The notes beneath the pieces are model-generated. The model was not told the origin of the DNA. It saw only the letters and a list, made by a program, of their open reading frames with translations, and did not search any database. This document shows positions 1-10,081 of a DNA stretch of 33,493 bases, one piece after another (position 1 is the first letter of the stretch; each line of letters opens with the position of its first letter). Source of the DNA: a virus (Duplodnaviria; Heunggongvirae; Uroviricota; Caudoviricetes); IMG/VR virus record IMGVR_UViG_2579779076_000013; one strand, given 5' to 3'. Both the position numbers and the translations under genes were made by a program.

Positions 1-1032
1 TCAAAAAATTCCTATTGATGTTGGTAGTGTTGCCAGCGGATTAAACCGTAATGCAGTTTCCAGGTGATCCGGTGCCAGATGTGCGTAACGCATAGTCATT
101 TTTATGTCGTGATGTCCGAGGATTTTTTGCAAAGCAAGGATATTTCCACCCGACATCATGAAATGCGCCGCAAACGTATGGCGCAGAACGTGTGTCAGTT
201 GACCGCGAGGGAGCACGATAGACGTTTTTTCCATCACGGATAAAAATTGAAAATAGCAGTCTGTAAAGAAATTGAACCCATCAAGCGCCATGATCTCTTC
301 GTAAAGCTCTTTACTGATAGGGATGCTTCTGTTTTTCTTCCCCTTCGTTCTTACAAAGGTAATTCGGTATTTGGTCACTTGCGAGCGGGTAAGATTTATT
401 GCTTCTCGCCAGCGTGCGCCTGTGCTTAGGCATATCTTGACTACCAGTGCCAGAATTGGGTCCTGACGTTTGCAATCAGCCAGCAGTTCAACAATCTGCT
501 CATGGGTAAGCCATGCCATCTCTTTTTCTGCGATGGTGAATTTTCGCATGTTCTCCAGTGGGTTCGGATACGACCATTCGCCCAGGCGGGATAGTTCGCT
601 AAAAACACTACTTAGATAGCTTTGCTCCAGGTTAATGGTGACCGGGCTTGCTCCTTTCTTCCATTTCTCGCTGAAGTAGATCTCGCCTGTCAGGCGTTTA
701 TCTCGATAGTGGGCAAACATTTTAGAGGTGAGATCGGTTGCAAGAGGATTGCCCAGAGCGCCAACCATCAGCAGCAATTTGTCATAGACATGCTGCCCAG
801 CAGTCAGAGATTTACCATGTAGTTTGAACCATAGCTCAACCACGTCTTTCAGGGTTCGACGATCCACTGATTCGCCCAGCCATGGCTTTGATTCGGTTTC
901 TTCCATAGTGTGACGCTCAAAAGCCAGAGCTTCGCCTTTGGTGGCGAATTGTTTACACACACGACGCCCACTTCGTCCGGCGGGGTAACATTCGCAAAGC
1001 CATTTCCCTGTGGTGAGTTTTCGTACTGCCAT
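1..1032 (-). CDS. int: tyrosine integrase (P2 Int-like)
   Basis: ORF track 1..1188, but P2 Int-like sequence begins at the internal Met (MAVRKLTTGKW...), which has a GGAGG RBS 9 nt upstream on the minus strand. Tyrosine-recombinase motifs present: TGARWRE, HVLRHTFA, MRYAHL. Stop codon at window positions 1-3. Confidence 0.9.
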   Translation of the reverse strand: MAVRKLTTGKWLCECYPAGRSGRRVCKQFATKGEALAFERHTMEETESKPWLGESVDRRTLKDVVELWFKLHGKSLTAGQHVYDKLLLMVGALGNPLATDLTSKMFAHYRDKRLTGEIYFSEKWKKGASPVTINLEQSYLSSVFSELSRLGEWSYPNPLENMRKFTIAEKEMAWLTHEQIVELLADCKRQDPILALVVKICLSTGARWREAINLTRSQVTKYRITFVRTKGKKNRSIPISKELYEEIMALDGFNFFTDCYFQFLSVMEKTSIVLPRGQLTHVLRHTFAAHFMMSGGNILALQKILGHHDIKMTMRYAHLAPDHLETALRFNPLATLPTSIGIF

Positions 1033-1063
1033 AAAAAATGCCCTCCAGTAGAGAGCATTTTTA

Positions 1064-1079
1064 CTGTATGTATAACCAG
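1064..1079. promoter_or_regulatory. LexA-box-like palindrome upstream of int
   Basis: TACTGTATGTATAACCAGTG fits CTG-N10-CAG with an AT-rich centre; one deviation from CTGT-N8-ACAG (CCAG). Lies about 32-47 bp upstream of the int start codon. Confidence 0.35.
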
Positions 1080-3950: not shown

Positions 3951-4177
3951 TGGCTGATGCAATGGATCTCGTACAGCAGCGCGTTGAAGAAGAACGCCAG
4001 CGCCATATCCGTGCTGCCCGTGCCAAAACGCCGGGCGTGTCCCGCGTGCTTTGCGTTGAGTGTGAAGCGCCAATTCCGCCAGCACGCCGCCGTGCCATTC
4101 CGGGTGTGCAGCTTTGCATTACCTGTCAGGAAATCGCAGAGCTGAAAGGCAAACATTACAACGGAGGTGCTGTATGA
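3950..4177 (+). CDS. TraR/DksA-family C4 zinc-finger protein
   Basis: CVECEAPIPPARRRAIPGVQLCITCQ = C-x2-C-x17-C-x2-C; 75 aa; translationally coupled to neighbours. Confidence 0.7.
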   Translation: MADAMDLVQQRVEEERQRHIRAARAKTPGVSRVLCVECEAPIPPARRRAIPGVQLCITCQEIAELKGKHYNGGAV

Positions 4178-5031
4178 GCACCATCCTGAAATGGGCGGGT
4201 AATAAAACCGCCATTATGCCAGAACTGAAAAAATACCTTCCTGCTGGCCCGCGACTGGTTGAACCTTTCGCGGGTTCTTGTGCTGTGATGATAGAGACGG
4301 ATTACCCCAGCTATCTTGTTGCGGATATTAATCCTGATTTAATCAACCTCTATAAAAAGGTTGCTGCTGATTGCGAGGCGTTTATATCTCGTGCCAGAGC
4401 TTTATTTGAGGAAGCAAACAGGGAGGTGGCTTATTACAACATAAGGCAGGAGTTTAATTACTCCACTGAAATTACTGATTTCATGAAAGCGGTATATTTC
4501 CTGTATCTCAATCGTCATGGTTACCGTGGGTTATGTCGCTATAACAAGAGCGGGCATTTCAACATTCCCTATGGGAATTATAAAAATCCGTATTTCCCTG
4601 AAAAAGAAATTCGCAAATTTGCAGAAAAAGCCCAGCGAGCAACGTTTATCTGCGCCAGCTTTGATGAAACGCTGGCGATGTTGAAGGCGGGGGATGTGGT
4701 GTATTGCGATCCGCCTTATTACGGTACGTTTTCCGGCTATCACACTGATGGCTTCACTGAGGATGACCAGTATCACCTGGCATCCGTTCTTGAACATCGA
4801 TCATCTGAAGGTCATCCGGTCATTGTTTCTAACAGTGACACATCCCTGATTCGTTCGCTGTATCGCAATTTCACTCACCACTACATCAAGGCAAAACGCA
4901 GCATCGGCGTGTCGGCTGGCGAGAGTAAATCTGCAACAGAAATCATTGCTGTTTCCGGGGCGCGCTGCTGGGTGGGATTTGATCCTTCGCGTGGCGTAGA
5001 TAGTTCTGCTGTGTACGAGGTGCGTGTATGA
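4174..5031 (+). CDS. dam: DNA adenine (N6) methyltransferase, Dam-like
   Basis: ATG at 4174 (GGAGG RBS) overlaps the upstream stop. Motif I FAGSCAV and motif IV DPPY ([12 protein letters not shown]). N-terminus [11 protein letters not shown] is typical of Dam. Confidence 0.85.
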
Positions 5032-7442
5032 GTCATGACGATATGAGCAACTCTAGCGGCTTTAACGAGGCCGCCGCATCATTTTCATGGAACGGCCCGA
5101 AAAAGGCCATTAACCCTTATCTGGACCCGGCGGAAGTTGCGCCGGAGTCTGCACTTTCAAACCTGATCACTCTGTATGCTGCCGATAACGAGCAGGAACA
5201 ACTGCGCCGCGAGGCACTGAGTGAGCAGGTCTGGGAGCGTTATTTCTTTAATGAATCCCGTGATCCTGTCCAGCGCGAAATGGAGCAGGATAAGCTCATT
5301 AGCCGGGCAAAGCTGGCGCATGAGCAGCAGCGTTTTAATCCAGACATGGTCATTCTGGCTGACGTCAACGCCCAGCCTTCCCATATCAGCAAGCCGCTGA
5401 TGCAACGTATTGAATACTTCAGCAGCCTGGGCAGGCCAAAGGCTTATTCCCGCTATTTGCGTGAGACGATTAAGCCATGTCTGGAACGGCTGGAGCATAT
5501 ACGCGACAGTCAGCTATCCACTTCTTTTCGCTTTATGGCGAGCCATGAAGGGCTGGACGGCCTGCTGATCCTGCCTGAAATGAGTCAGGATCAGGTGAAA
5601 CGCCTGTCCACCCTGGTAGCTGCGCATATGAGCATGTGCCTTGATGCAGCTTGTGGCGATTTGTATGCCACCGATGACGTTAAGCCAGAAGAAATCCGCA
5701 AGACATGGGAAAGGGTGGCAGCAGAAACCCTGCGACTGGATGTCATCCCACCTGCGTTTGAGCAACTCCGCCGGAAAAGAAACCGCCGTAAACCCGTGCC
5801 CTATGAACTCATTCCGGGTTCGCTAGCGCGTATGTTGTGCGCCGACTGGTGGTACCGGAAATTATGGAAGATGCGTTGCGAATGGCGGGAAGAGCAGTTG
5901 CGCGCTGTCTGCCTGGTCAGCAAAAAAGCATCTCCCTATGTCAGCTATGAAGCCGTGATGCATAAACGTGAGCAGCGCCGTAAGTCGCTGGAGTTTTTTC
6001 GTTCTCATGAACTGGTGAACGAAGACGGCGACACGCTGGATATGGAAGACGTGGTAAACGCCAGCAGCAGCAACCCTGCACATCGCCGCAATGAGATGAT
6101 GGCCTGTGTTAAAGGTCTGGAGCTTATCGCGGAAATGCGCGGTGACTGCGCCGTTTTCTACACCATCACCTGTCCGTCACGTTTCCATTCCACGCTCAAT
6201 AACGGCAGACCAAACCCAACCTGGACAAATGCGACGGTAAGACAAAGCAGCGATTATCTGGTCGGCATGTTTGCTGCATTTCGTAAGGCGATGCACAAAG
6301 CCGGGTTGCGCTGGTATGGCGTGCGGGTGGCTGAGCCGCATCATGACGGTACGGTTCACTGGCACCTGTTGTGTTTCATGCGCAAAAAAGACCGCCGTGC
6401 CATTACTGCATTGTTGTGTAAGTTTGCCATCCGTGAAGACCGCGAGGAACTGGGTAATAACACTGGTCCACGCTTTAAATCTGAGCTGATAAACCCGCGC
6501 AAAGGAACACCGACAAGCTACATCGCGAAATACATTAGTAAGAACATTGACGGGCGTGGTCTGGCTGGCGAGATCAGCAAGGAAACGGGTAAATCCCTGC
6601 GTGATAACGCTGAATACGTTAATGCCTGGGCGTCTCTGCATCGTGTTCAGCAATTCCGCTTCTTTGGTATTCCGGGGCGTCAGGCTTACCGTGAACTGCG
6701 ATTGCTGGCTGGTCAGGCGGCAAGGCAACAGGGTGACAAAAAAGCAGGTGCGCCGGTACTGGATAACCCGCGCCTTGATGCCATCCTGGCTGCTGCTGAT
6801 GCTGGTTGTTTTGCCACTTACATCATGAAGCAGGGTGGCGTACTGGTTCCCCGCAAATATCACCTCATCAGAACTGCTTATGAAATTAACGAAGAGCCGA
6901 CCGCCTATGGCGATCACGGCATTCGTATTTATGGCATCTGGTCACCCATTGCAGAGGGCAAGATCTGCACTCATGCAGTGAAGTGGAAAATGGTTCGTAA
7001 AGCCGTTGACGTTCAGGAGGCGGTAGCCGACCAGGGCGCTTGCGCCCCTTGGACTCGTGGCAATAACTGTCCCCTTGCTGAAAATTTGAACCAACAGGAG
7101 AAAGATAAATCAGCTGATGGGGACCCCAGAACGGACATTACCAGCATGGATGACAAGGAGTTGCACGATTACCTGCACAGTATGAGCAAAAAAGAGCGCC
7201 GGGAACTGGCAGCAAGGTTACGCCTGGTGAAACCGAAACGGCGTAAAGACTACAAACAGCGAATTACAGACCATCAGCGACTGCAGCTCGTGTATGAGCT
7301 GAAGTCCAGAGGATTTGATGGCAGCGAGAAAGAGGTCGATTTACTCCTTCGCGGAGGCAGTATTCCGTCAGGAGCAGGCCTGCGTATCTTCTATCGGAAC
7401 CAGCGTTTGCAGGAAGATGATCAGTGGCGGAACCTGTATTAA
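5028..7442 (+). CDS. A: replication initiation endonuclease gpA (HUH rolling-circle initiator)
   Basis: 804-aa ORF coupled to dam (ATGA overlap). HUH-type motif VHWHLLCF. Size and position match P2/186 gene A. Confidence 0.9.
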
Positions 7443-7536
7443 TTACGCGGGTTAACAATTCGTGCTCTTAATAATACCAGGCATATCAGGCTGATGAACG
7501 TAAAAAAACGTTTTACATCAGTAAGATTATTATATA

Positions 7537-7552
7537 CTGTAAATATAAACAG
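7537..7552. promoter_or_regulatory. LexA box (SOS operator) overlapping the promoter of the downstream two-gene operon
   Basis: TACTGTAAATATAAACAGTG is a perfect CTGT-N8-ACAG with an AT-rich centre. An upstream TTTACA -35-like element is present. Confidence 0.7.
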
Positions 7553-7595
7553 TGGTTATACATACAGTATTGCGTGTGGTGTCATAGGAGGAAAG

Positions 7596-7784
7596 ATGCA
7601 GGACTATTTTTTGGAGTCTTTGAAGCTCCAGCGCATTGATTTTTTTCTTAAGCTTGTAGCGGCTAGTGAGTGTAGTGATGAAGAGAAGGGGCTGGCTCTG
7701 CAGTGGGTTTCTGAATTGACTGATGAACTCATGGCAAAAATCAGAACCCACGAATACAACCGCTCAATGGATGTCATCAGCTGA
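7596..7784 (+). CDS. small SOS-controlled protein, candidate Tum-like antirepressor (62 aa)
   Basis: AGGAGG RBS 4-9 nt upstream of ATG 7596 and immediately downstream of the LexA box. The longer track ORF (7494) would contain the operator and RBS, so the shorter start is preferred. Confidence 0.45.
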   Translation: MQDYFLESLKLQRIDFFLKLVAASECSDEEKGLALQWVSELTDELMAKIRTHEYNRSMDVIS

Positions 7785-7794
7785 GGTGACTTTT

Positions 7795-8028
7795 ATGCGC
7801 ATTGAAATAATGATCGATAAAGAGCAGAAGATTAGCCAGTCTACCCTAGACGCCCTTGAATCCGAGCTTTACCGCAATCTGCGCCCCCTGTATCCCAAAA
7901 CGGTAATTCGCATTCGCAAAGGTAGCTCTAACGGTGTGGAACTAACCGGACTGCAACTGGACGAAGAAAGAAAACAAGTGATGAAAATTATGCAGAAGGT
8001 GTGGGAAGACGACAGCTGGCTGCATTAA
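7795..8028 (+). CDS. DinI-family protein
   Basis: MRIEIMIDK...LDALESEL...QKVWEDDSWLH parallels E. coli DinI (MRIEVTIAK...IDALAGEL...QETWESADDWF). 77 aa; GAGGTGA RBS. Confidence 0.7.
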   Translation: MRIEIMIDKEQKISQSTLDALESELYRNLRPLYPKTVIRIRKGSSNGVELTGLQLDEERKQVMKIMQKVWEDDSWLH

Positions 8029-8311: not shown

Positions 8312-10081
8312 ATGGCTGAACTTGCGTCACAACCAACATCTATTCAATCTATTTATAACTGGTATATTGATAACAGACTCTTTGTTAATAGGAGATATCA
8401 ACGTAAATTAGTTTGGACATTAATTGAAAAGCAAAAGCTTGTAGATTCGATTTTGAAAAAATATCCAGTACCAGCAATACTTATTGCTGAAAGAGAAGGT
8501 TCCCCTGGTACGTATGAAATAATTGATGGTTTACAGCGTCTCCACGCCATTATGTCGTTTATAGAAACTTCTTATACGACCATTGATGGTAAAATATTCA
8601 ATCTTCAATTTTTCCCAACAGCTCAAACAAGAGCAGATGAAGGTTTTTTTGAGCCTGACATACAATCCGAAGTAATTTCGCAACGAGATGTGGGAACGTT
8701 TCTTGATTATCCATTAGCTTTGTCTGTGATGCGAAATGCTACTGAAAATGAGATCAATGATGTTTTTGATAGAATTAACTCGTATGGTCACAGACTTAGC
8801 GATCAAGAAAGAAGACAGTCAGGGGTGGAAAACAGTTTTTCAACAATGGTTAGAAATATTTCCTGTTCGATTCGAGGTGATGTTTCAAGTGATATATTAC
8901 CCCTTCGTGATATGCCATCCATTAGTATCGACTTGCCTTTAACCAGGCACGGGTATTCAGTTAAGGCTGATGATGTATTCTGGGTTAAACATGGCGTTTT
9001 GCGTTCAACTGATCTAAGAGACAGTATGGATGAGCAATGTATAGCTGATATTGCTGCTTGTGTAATATTAGGTGAGCCTATTGAAAGATCAAAGGTTGCG
9101 CTTGATAGGATTTATGATCAATCTCGTCCAGAATATATTCAGCTTAACTCTGCGCTTGAGGTTTATGGAGATACTAAGTTTATTGAAGAGTTTAAGTATT
9201 GTCTCGATGAAATTATTAAAGTCTGTGAAAATGGTACTTTCATAAAATTAAGGGAGTTGATTTTCCCCGATGCAAATAATAATGCATATCCATCTGTTTT
9301 TTCGATTTTATTCTTATCTTTCTATGAGTTGATTGTCGGCGAAAATAAAAAAGTGGCTAATTATTCTGAACTAAGGAACCGAATGAATAATATTGTCGAT
9401 AGAATTAATATAGGACGAAGAGCAGGAAGCGTTGATGAACGAAGAGCAAATATCGATGCTGTAAAAGGTTTGATTGGTGTATCTTTTGTGGTTTCTGATG
9501 AACCTCTACCTATTTATGAAAACCATACCGGCATGGACATAGAGAATTATATTAGAAGGTCTGAAGTGGAATTGGCTAACTATGAGTTAAAGCAGGGGAT
9601 GTTGAACTTAAATAATTCGAGAACATTGAATCAAGATGTTGTGCACAGAATTATTAATACTATATGTGCAATAGCTAATAATGGGAAAGGGACGCTCGGA
9701 AAAATTATCATTGGTGTTGCTGATGATGACCATGATGCAGAGAGAGTAAGACAGTTAGATCGTATTGAACCAAAACGAGTTGGTTTAAAAAACGTTGTAG
9801 GTGTTTCAAGAGAAGCTAGAGCGCTCGGTATTACTAATGAAGAGTATTTAACTCGGTGGGTCAATGCTATTCAAAATTCAGAGTTATCAGAGCCACTGAA
9901 AAGTAATGTTTTGTCAAAGATAGACTATAATGATTTTTATGGATTAGGGGTCATCGTTATTACGGTACCTCCCCAACAATCGATTTCCGCGGTAGGTCAA
10001 GATATTTATTGGCGAGAAGCTGATAAAACAACCTTAGCTCATGGCTTACAAATAGCGACAATAGCTACTAGATTTAGTTAA
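8312..10081 (+). CDS. DUF262/ParB-like N-terminal domain protein with C-terminal Schlafen/AlbA_2-like domain; candidate anti-phage defence cargo
   Basis: 589-aa ORF with AGAGGA RBS. N-terminal DGQQR-type motif (YEIIDGLQRLHAI) after a basic RRYQRK segment. C-terminal motif SEVELANYELK...ICAIANNGKGTLGKIIIGVADDD resembles the AlbA_2/Schlafen signature. No HxxP/HNH (DUF1524) motif seen. Visibly AT-rich. Confidence 0.8.
   Translation: MAELASQPTSIQSIYNWYIDNRLFVNRRYQRKLVWTLIEKQKLVDSILKKYPVPAILIAEREGSPGTYEIIDGLQRLHAIMSFIETSYTTIDGKIFNLQFFPTAQTRADEGFFEPDIQSEVISQRDVGTFLDYPLALSVMRNATENEINDVFDRINSYGHRLSDQERRQSGVENSFSTMVRNISCSIRGDVSSDILPLRDMPSISIDLPLTRHGYSVKADDVFWVKHGVLRSTDLRDSMDEQCIADIAACVILGEPIERSKVALDRIYDQSRPEYIQLNSALEVYGDTKFIEEFKYCLDEIIKVCENGTFIKLRELIFPDANNNAYPSVFSILFLSFYELIVGENKKVANYSELRNRMNNIVDRINIGRRAGSVDERRANIDAVKGLIGVSFVVSDEPLPIYENHTGMDIENYIRRSEVELANYELKQGMLNLNNSRTLNQDVVHRIINTICAIANNGKGTLGKIIIGVADDDHDAERVRQLDRIEPKRVGLKNVVGVSREARALGITNEEYLTRWVNAIQNSELSEPLKSNVLSKIDYNDFYGLGVIVITVPPQQSISAVGQDIYWREADKTTLAHGLQIATIATRFS

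Follow-up and report, generated by a model that had tools for sequence, protein, structure and literature searches.

The integrase gene (int) of this prophage is most likely driven by its own dedicated promoter, P_int, under the repression of LexA, and DNA damage would probably switch on the excising integrase directly. The window, i.e., the whole 33,493-nt stretch of DNA analyzed here, carries a putative LexA operator (SOS box), TACTGTATGTATAACCAGTG, at positions 1062 to 1081, with its CTG-N10-CAG core at 1064-1079. Judged by matrix score and conservation, the palindrome is genuine and lies well outside chance expectation. What was read directly from the DNA is that the elements described below exist, how they score, how they are arranged, and how they are conserved and distributed. 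Two of them, an inverted repeat beside the -35 hexamer that resembles the CII operator of phage 186 and a leader hairpin predicted to hide the int ribosome-binding site (RBS), were absent from the sequence-only reading that preceded our analysis.

The window represents a complete-looking prophage of the P2/186 family (Peduoviridae). It maps to the chromosome of Escherichia coli UC4224 beside rcdA, with 100% identity over its first 1.4 kb, and the lineage was found in 987 of 5,426 complete E. coli genomes (roughly a fifth) and in many other Enterobacterales. The int gene (1-1032, minus strand; ATG at 1032-1030, not at 1031, and stop codon at 3-1) encodes a 343-aa tyrosine integrase with the Pfam domains Int_N and Phage_integrase, 55% identical to 186 Int, and the RefSeq start of int in UC4224 is the same. 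A longer open reading frame spanning 1-1188, which would put the box within coding sequence, was dismissed because the int start is 1032 both in RefSeq and in all relatives and because the sequence upstream of 1032 shows no protein-level conservation. Upstream of int on the minus strand are a 63-aa cargo ORF (1221-1412; a YdcA family protein according to RefSeq, phrog_6000) and cI (1428-2003), coding for a 186-type immunity repressor (Pfam Phage_CI_repr and Phage_CI_C). These are followed by a gene for a Cox/Apl-type excisionase (2123-2344), by cII of the CP76 family (2377-2886; Pfam Phage_CP76, E 3e-42), and by the replication gene A (5028-7442).

Several other features of this neighborhood were recorded. 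By eye, the N-terminus of the 63-aa cargo protein is hydrophobic and signal-peptide-like. The cI-int interval is a cargo hotspot, with unrelated inserts of 1 to 3.3 kb in relatives; in phage 813R9 the insert between cI and int is a 1.7-kb gene annotated as "chromosome segregation ATPase." A near-consensus promoter-like site on the plus strand, TTAACA-N17-TATAAT (1432-1460), agrees at 11 of 12 positions; situated at the 3' end of cI, it is oriented antisense to that gene and may be a chance occurrence. In the early operon, just upstream of gene A, an ORF occupies 4174-5031 (plus strand), where 4LV2017 and 813R9 have an annotated DNA adenine methylase and 186 has other ORFs at the corresponding position.

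The sequence-only reading had described a CTG-N10-CAG palindrome with an AT-rich center about 20 nt upstream of the int RBS, and both statements held: CTGTATGTATAACCAG is present at 1064-1079 (plus strand), and the box ends 17 nt upstream of the GGAGGG at 1046-1041. That reading had also urged caution because CCAG stands in place of ACAG, a ground that falls away given that CCAG occurs in 7 of 18 documented E. coli boxes (those of recN, dinI, dinB, uvrB, uvrD, ruvA, and cho; PMC3009722, Table 4). The check it had proposed, scoring against a LexA matrix, was performed with two matrices, one made from 32 E. coli boxes and the other restricted to the 18 documented boxes of PMC3009722 (Table 4). 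The two gave the same result, 24.2 and 24.1 bits, respectively, for TACTGTATGTATAACCAGTG, a value in the top third of those of genuine E. coli LexA boxes. With the 18-box matrix, the documented boxes themselves span 13.2 to 28.2 bits, and the int box scored higher than those of recA, sulA, lexA, and dinI. Compared to the consensus TACTGTATATATATACAGTA, it matches at 16 of 20 positions.

Within the whole window, the int box ranked first or second, the rest of the top being two boxes at 7535-7569 that belong to the SOS operon of the phage. Only three sites in the 33.5 kb exceeded 11 bits, and the next site scored 11 bits. When the window was shuffled 300 times, no site at 24 bits was obtained and the mean best score was 11. 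Counts of the bare patterns were uninformative as a test, with 22 matches in the window to CTG-N10-CAG against 9.7 expected and 7 matches to CTGT-N9-CAG; matrix scoring was used instead.

A promoter scan predicted P_int as TTGACA-N17-AAAAAT, directed at int and agreeing with the sigma-70 consensus at 10 of 12 positions. The -35 hexamer TTGACA is located at 1080-1085 and the -10 hexamer AAAAAT at 1057-1062, both on the minus strand, and the 3' end of P_int lies 25 nt before the int ATG (1032); an alternative -10, TAAAAA, at 1063-1058 on the same strand would leave a 16-bp spacer. The LexA box exactly fills the 17-bp spacer of the predicted promoter, sharing 2 nt with the -35 and 1 nt with the -10, and as is characteristic of SOS boxes, the site thus overlaps core promoter elements. 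A LexA dimer placed in such a spacer would exclude RNA polymerase, as is classical for SOS promoters.

We surveyed int loci by scanning one genome per species with the Int protein, which yielded 77 loci. Of these, 41, representing 40 distinct sequences, carry a box of 15 to 27 bits at -47 to -54 relative to the int ATG. The box-bearing loci come from about 20 Enterobacterales genera, with Int identity of 53-99%; among these genera are Escherichia, Klebsiella, Raoultella, Citrobacter, Enterobacter, Kluyvera, Serratia, and Yersinia, and further ones include Pectobacterium, Rahnella, Ewingella, Pantoea, Mixta, and Brenneria. CTG is retained in 39 and CAG in all of the 40 distinct box-bearing loci, with a variable box interior and randomized flanks, and column statistics over the same 40 loci showed that the TTGA of the -35 and a -10 of the TAAAAT/TTAAAT type are conserved. 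At the place of the -10, the relatives have TAAAAT, TTAAAT, or TAGAAT. The box was also kept, together with the promoter, in each of 80 viral contigs examined (29 distinct upstream sequences). The site is stronger, and far better conserved, than the sequence-only reading had assumed.

The distribution of the box follows gene order. Among loci with a recognizable cI, none of the 16 in which int abuts cI, the arrangement of 186, carries the box, as opposed to 27 of 35 loci in which 395 to 3,286 nt of cargo lie between the two genes. This ties the box to the architecture in which the lysogenic transcript no longer reliably reaches int, and since 8 of those 35 loci with int apart from cI are without it, the module is not obligatory. 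In the loci L039-L045 and L072 (Pectobacterium, Brenneria, Budvicia, and Orbus), int lies 0.5 to 2 kb from cI; no LexA box was detected upstream of int in these loci, nor any CII-like repeat except a 2-mismatch match at -255 in L042. In these lineages, int must be expressed some other way.

Comparison of mosaic relatives, e.g., Klebsiella 4LV2017 and E. coli 813R9, revealed homology that covers int and about 60-80 nt upstream of it. This homology ends a little past the -35, which makes the promoter part of the int module, with which it travels. In whole-phage scans of 4LV2017 and 813R9, the SOS operon and int were the only places with strong LexA sites; in 186, the only strong site was at p95.

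The SOS operon of the phage, located downstream of gene A, served as an internal control. Its two overlapping LexA boxes (7535-7569) scored 24.5 and 17.9 bits with the 18-box matrix and sit on a p95-like promoter, TTTACA-N17-TACTGT, at the position of p95 in 186. The operon comprises a 62-aa ORF (7596-7784) and a DinI-like ORF (7795-8028), the latter assigned by a DinI family match. The 62-aa ORF is a candidate antirepressor; it gave no BLASTP alignment with 186 Tum and is placed in phrog_698, a PHROG family of unknown function. The 17-mer TGGTTATACATACAGTA is identical in the second SOS-operon box (7553-7569) and in the int box (1063-1079, minus strand), and when flanks are included, the two match at 20 of 21 positions. 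Duplication, gene conversion, or chance could be the source of this shared sequence; the corresponding boxes of 4LV2017 and 813R9 are similar, not identical. Directly after the SOS operon, at a variable locus of the P2 family, a 589-aa protein is encoded at 8312-10081 (plus strand) that combines GmrSD_N (DUF262-type) and Schlafen AlbA_2 domains and is a candidate anti-phage defense gene.

Next to the -35 of P_int is an inverted repeat, ATGTATG-N12-CATACAT (1085-1110), that resembles a 186 CII operator; its half-site nearer the promoter (1085-1091) shares 1 nt with the -35. The CII operator of pE in the window, ATGTTTG-N13-CAAACAT, occupies 2377-2403, the first 27 nt of cII; the equivalent site of 186, at the same place and with the same sequence, is annotated in U32222 as "CII, activate pE." The pattern ATGTWTG-N12/13-CAWACAT, for which 0.01 occurrences would be expected in the window, occurs there only at these two sites, int and pE. 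The distance from the proximal half-site to a -10-like hexamer is 22 nt in both cases, the pE hexamers being our own reading, as they have no individual annotation in U32222. In our prediction, pE reads TAGTCA-N17-CAGAAT on the minus strand (2377-2438), immediately downstream of the CII operator. That operator is conserved in 39 loci, with N13 in all 39, and a -10-like hexamer (CAGAAT, CAAAAT, or CATAAT) stands at a fixed distance in most of them.

The int half-sites fit ATGTTTG/CAAACAT with one symmetric T-to-A change, the same change being found at pE of Pectobacterium and Brenneria relatives. They are kept with at most two mismatches in 36 of the 40 box-bearing loci, the interior of the repeat being random; nearly all box-less loci show 3 to 5 mismatches to the half-sites, which is the background expectation. 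A cognate activator is encoded by the phage: the window CII shares 69% identity with its 186 counterpart, from which it hardly differs over residues 26-46. Other identities of the repeat were considered. It stays constant among loci in which cI identity ranges from 40 to 100%, and because cI type varies and the repeat does not, it is not an immunity operator; CI was rejected as its ligand on this ground. An Apl or Cox site was likewise rejected, the Apl and Cox sites being direct and not inverted repeats (PMC7498355). Inspection of the inverted repeat by eye revealed no match to the IHF consensus. With these comparisons in hand, we lean toward a role for CII at int that is exerted through the repeat at 1085-1110.

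The main competing explanation, plausible though we regard it as rather doubtful, is that P_int answers to LexA only and CII has no role at int, with the repeat at 1085-1110 being a relic of a pE duplication, an AT-rich element of the UP type, or a site bound by some other protein. The spacing speaks for it: the repeat in the window has N12, i.e., 19 bp from center to center, as opposed to the N13 (20 bp) present at every pE, and Shearwin and Egan reportedly found in 2000 that a 1-bp change in spacing weakens CII binding markedly. The consensus TTGACA also favors it, since with such a -35 an activator is not obviously needed at P_int, which argues that any CII dependence is partial. Furthermore, 186 has been reported to possess a single CII-activated promoter (PMC7708051), although that statement concerns 186 itself, which is without the int module. 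On the other hand, half-sites kept around a random interior in 36 of 40 diverged loci are not expected of a relic, and their register relative to the -10 is the same at int and at pE. N12 is not the rule either; the box-bearing relatives have N12 in 19 and N13 in 18 of the 40. The repeat also stays constant while cI type varies, and the Apl and Cox sites are direct repeats (PMC7498355).

The sequence-only reading had suggested that int could be expressed independently of the cI transcript, and this is supported by the cargo between cI and int, by a terminator-like hairpin before the int ATG, and by the absence of the box exactly where int abuts cI. In an operon of the 186 type, int abuts or overlaps the cI stop codon and neither promoter nor terminator intervenes; the window instead has a 395-nt gap with the cargo ORF, the predicted promoter, and the hairpin. 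The hairpin spans 1034-1062 on the minus strand, with its 5' arm at 1062-1050, its loop at 1049-1047, and its 3' arm at 1046-1034, and a U-run on this strand (1038-1033) comes after the G+C-rich core of the stem. The sequence and the fold place the Shine-Dalgarno sequence of int, GGAGGG (1041-1046, minus strand), within the 3' arm, and the 5' arm lies upstream of the predicted start of P_int transcripts. RNA that reads through from upstream folds into a 13-bp stem with -17.2 kcal/mol and a z of -5.6. In comparison, RNA that begins at the predicted start, approximately 1049-1051 (6-8 nt past the -10), is without the 5' arm and showed no significant structure (z of about 0). A stable, G+C-containing stem-loop followed by U6, the hallmark of an intrinsic terminator, is present in the sequence; in a simple terminator scan, it was not among the minus-strand results.

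In relatives, 35 distinct leaders form hairpins at this same position, with a median z of -5.4. The stems differ too much for an alignment, and the leaders were therefore folded one by one. The hairpins comprise at least eight unrelated stem sequences, and with few exceptions their 3' arm contains the RBS; a compensatory pair of changes, C-to-T and G-to-A (AGTCCTCA/TGAGGACT), is seen in one variant. Roughly half of the hairpins carry a U-run and are terminator-like, and the others run straight into the start codon. Weaker leader hairpins were seen in several Pantoea, Mixta, and Pectobacterium loci, and these same loci instead have, just upstream of the inverted repeat, the 3' end of a GC-rich, terminator-like stretch with a T-run. 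An Rfam search of 900-1500 returned nothing credible, the sole match being Phe_leader at 22 bits versus a gathering score of 55. Altogether, the folds suggest that upstream transcripts would be terminated or untranslatable and that int would be expressed from P_int transcripts only.

It is unlikely that the hairpin and U-run act as an attenuator that stops P_int transcripts as well, in which case P_int would yield mainly a short RNA or would need an antiterminator or an RNA-binding factor such as Int. For P2 int, Int itself has been proposed as such an RNA-binding factor, and here the stem and U-run do resemble an intrinsic terminator placed between promoter and ATG. In relatives with the -10 TTAAAT, moreover, the predicted start falls near the base of the 5' arm, and part of the stem could be transcribed. 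However, the G+C-rich part of the 5' arm (1056-1050) lies wholly at or upstream of the predicted start in the window, and RNA from 1049-1051 is unstructured. The many hairpins among relatives that have no U-run and adjoin the start codon also fit masking of the RBS in read-through RNA better than termination.

A much less probable view takes the palindrome for a chance or decayed LexA-like sequence, with int expressed by read-through from the cI promoters, as in 186. The CTG-N10-CAG pattern is indeed common, as its 22 matches in the window attest, and int of 186 is co-transcribed with cI. Yet the score of the box was not reached in 300 shuffles, and in diverged relatives the box keeps a fixed position with a near-invariant CTG (39 of 40) and CAG (40 of 40). 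It fits exactly into a promoter spacer, and it is absent precisely where int abuts cI; read-through would also have to pass the strong hairpin and U-run that separate the cargo gene from the int ATG. Least credible of all is that LexA at 1062-1081 forms a roadblock to cI read-through and does not repress a local promoter: the site does lie between the upstream operon and int, but the box is bordered in all relatives by a conserved -35 and a conserved -10 that are set exactly a promoter spacing apart, the hairpin is already a block, and we know of no report of efficient roadblock action by LexA.

The reading we prefer, of a LexA-repressed P_int with a probable contribution of CII, can be put together as follows; that LexA binds, that P_int is active and starts where indicated, that transcripts terminate, and that CII acts here are all predictions from the DNA. 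Instead of being the distal gene of the cI operon, int would be transcribed from its own sigma-70 promoter. In a healthy lysogen, LexA bound in the spacer of P_int would block RNA polymerase, and little integrase would be made. Upon DNA damage, RecA-stimulated self-cleavage of LexA would derepress P_int and the SOS operon (7535-8028) together. With CI repression lost, the early lytic promoter would express the Cox/Apl-type excisionase, and the joint presence of integrase and excisionase would allow the prophage to excise. Read-through RNA from cI and the cargo gene would carry the whole hairpin (1062-1034) and the U-run and would either be terminated before the ATG or have its RBS buried, whereas P_int transcripts, with their predicted start at about 1049-1051, would be without the 5' arm and could be translated.

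During the establishment of lysogeny, the repeat at the -35 would function as a second CII operator and P_int would be boosted, as pI does for int in phage lambda. This meets a difficulty: since LexA is present in undamaged cells, P_int would also be repressed at infection, when integrase is needed. The model therefore needs leakiness of the promoter, CII-aided competition with LexA, or another source of Int. In an infected cell, RNA polymerase may prevail over LexA at P_int with the aid of CII, so that Int is supplied for integration, which is the weakest step. The full three-part module, in which a second CII operator and a LexA operator in the spacer are joined to a promoter nested within the terminator/anti-Shine-Dalgarno hairpin of upstream transcripts, with CII turning int on for integration, loss of LexA turning it on for excision, and read-through staying silent, is put forward tentatively, as a combination somewhat short of an even prospect.

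Among the closest known systems is 186 itself, the textbook case of SOS induction via a LexA-controlled antirepressor, in which int is on the cI transcript and CII acts at one promoter. The p95 promoter and the tum SOS operon of 186 are LexA-repressed (GenBank U32222 annotation; PMC7708051). Phage family and host repressor are the same as here, the boxes are nearly the same (TACTGTATGTTTATACAGTA in 186 versus TACTGTATGTATAACCAGTG in the window), and the window has an equivalent SOS operon with its two boxes at 7535-7569. In 186, however, LexA controls the antirepressor operon only, whereas the window has a second putative LexA operator at a separate int promoter. The box covers the -10 at 186 p95 and lies in the spacer at P_int, and int of 186 overlaps the cI stop codon by 1 nt and is transcribed with cI, unlike the separated int of the window. 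The likeness to 186 pE is in the inverted 7-bp half-sites about two helical turns apart, the proximal half-site that abuts the -35, and the 22 nt to the -10; P_int differs from pE in its N12, in its consensus -35 (poor at pE), and in the LexA box in its spacer.

Two further systems share parts of this design. The pI promoter of lambda is a CII-activated int promoter (mentioned in PMC7708051). Like P_int, it is a dedicated int promoter apart from the repressor operon that, in the case of P_int possibly, is switched on by the establishment activator; the proteins and operators are unrelated, and there is no LexA input at pI. After induction, lambda int depends on read-through from pL and on sib retroregulation, not on LexA. 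The integron integrase (intI) promoters are LexA-repressed (PMC3108266), and intI is like the window int a tyrosine recombinase gene with its own promoter and a conserved LexA box by which recombination is coupled to SOS. It differs in coding for a cassette integrase and in having no excisionase partner, CII-like operator, or terminator-embedded promoter. The module of the window thus departs from the 186 paradigm but consists of familiar parts. Our search, whose scope was the literature outside subscription journals, found nothing on LexA control of int in P2- or 186-like phages, either by topic or by box sequence.

If the three-part reading is true, this would be the first direct LexA control of an integrase in the P2/186 family and would add a second CII-dependent promoter to a family thought to have one. 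The sister lineage described here is much commoner than 186, and in it the SOS signal is probably wired to the recombinase as well as to the antirepressor. The module is about 80 bp long and could be put to use as a small promoter that responds to DNA damage and is shielded from transcription arriving from upstream. For the phages themselves, it would explain how variable cargo genes and terminators are tolerated between cI and int, and it would account for the silence of the integrase in lysogens, with less spontaneous curing and less off-target recombination as the consequence. It would also explain the mobilization of these prophages by antibiotics that trigger the SOS response.
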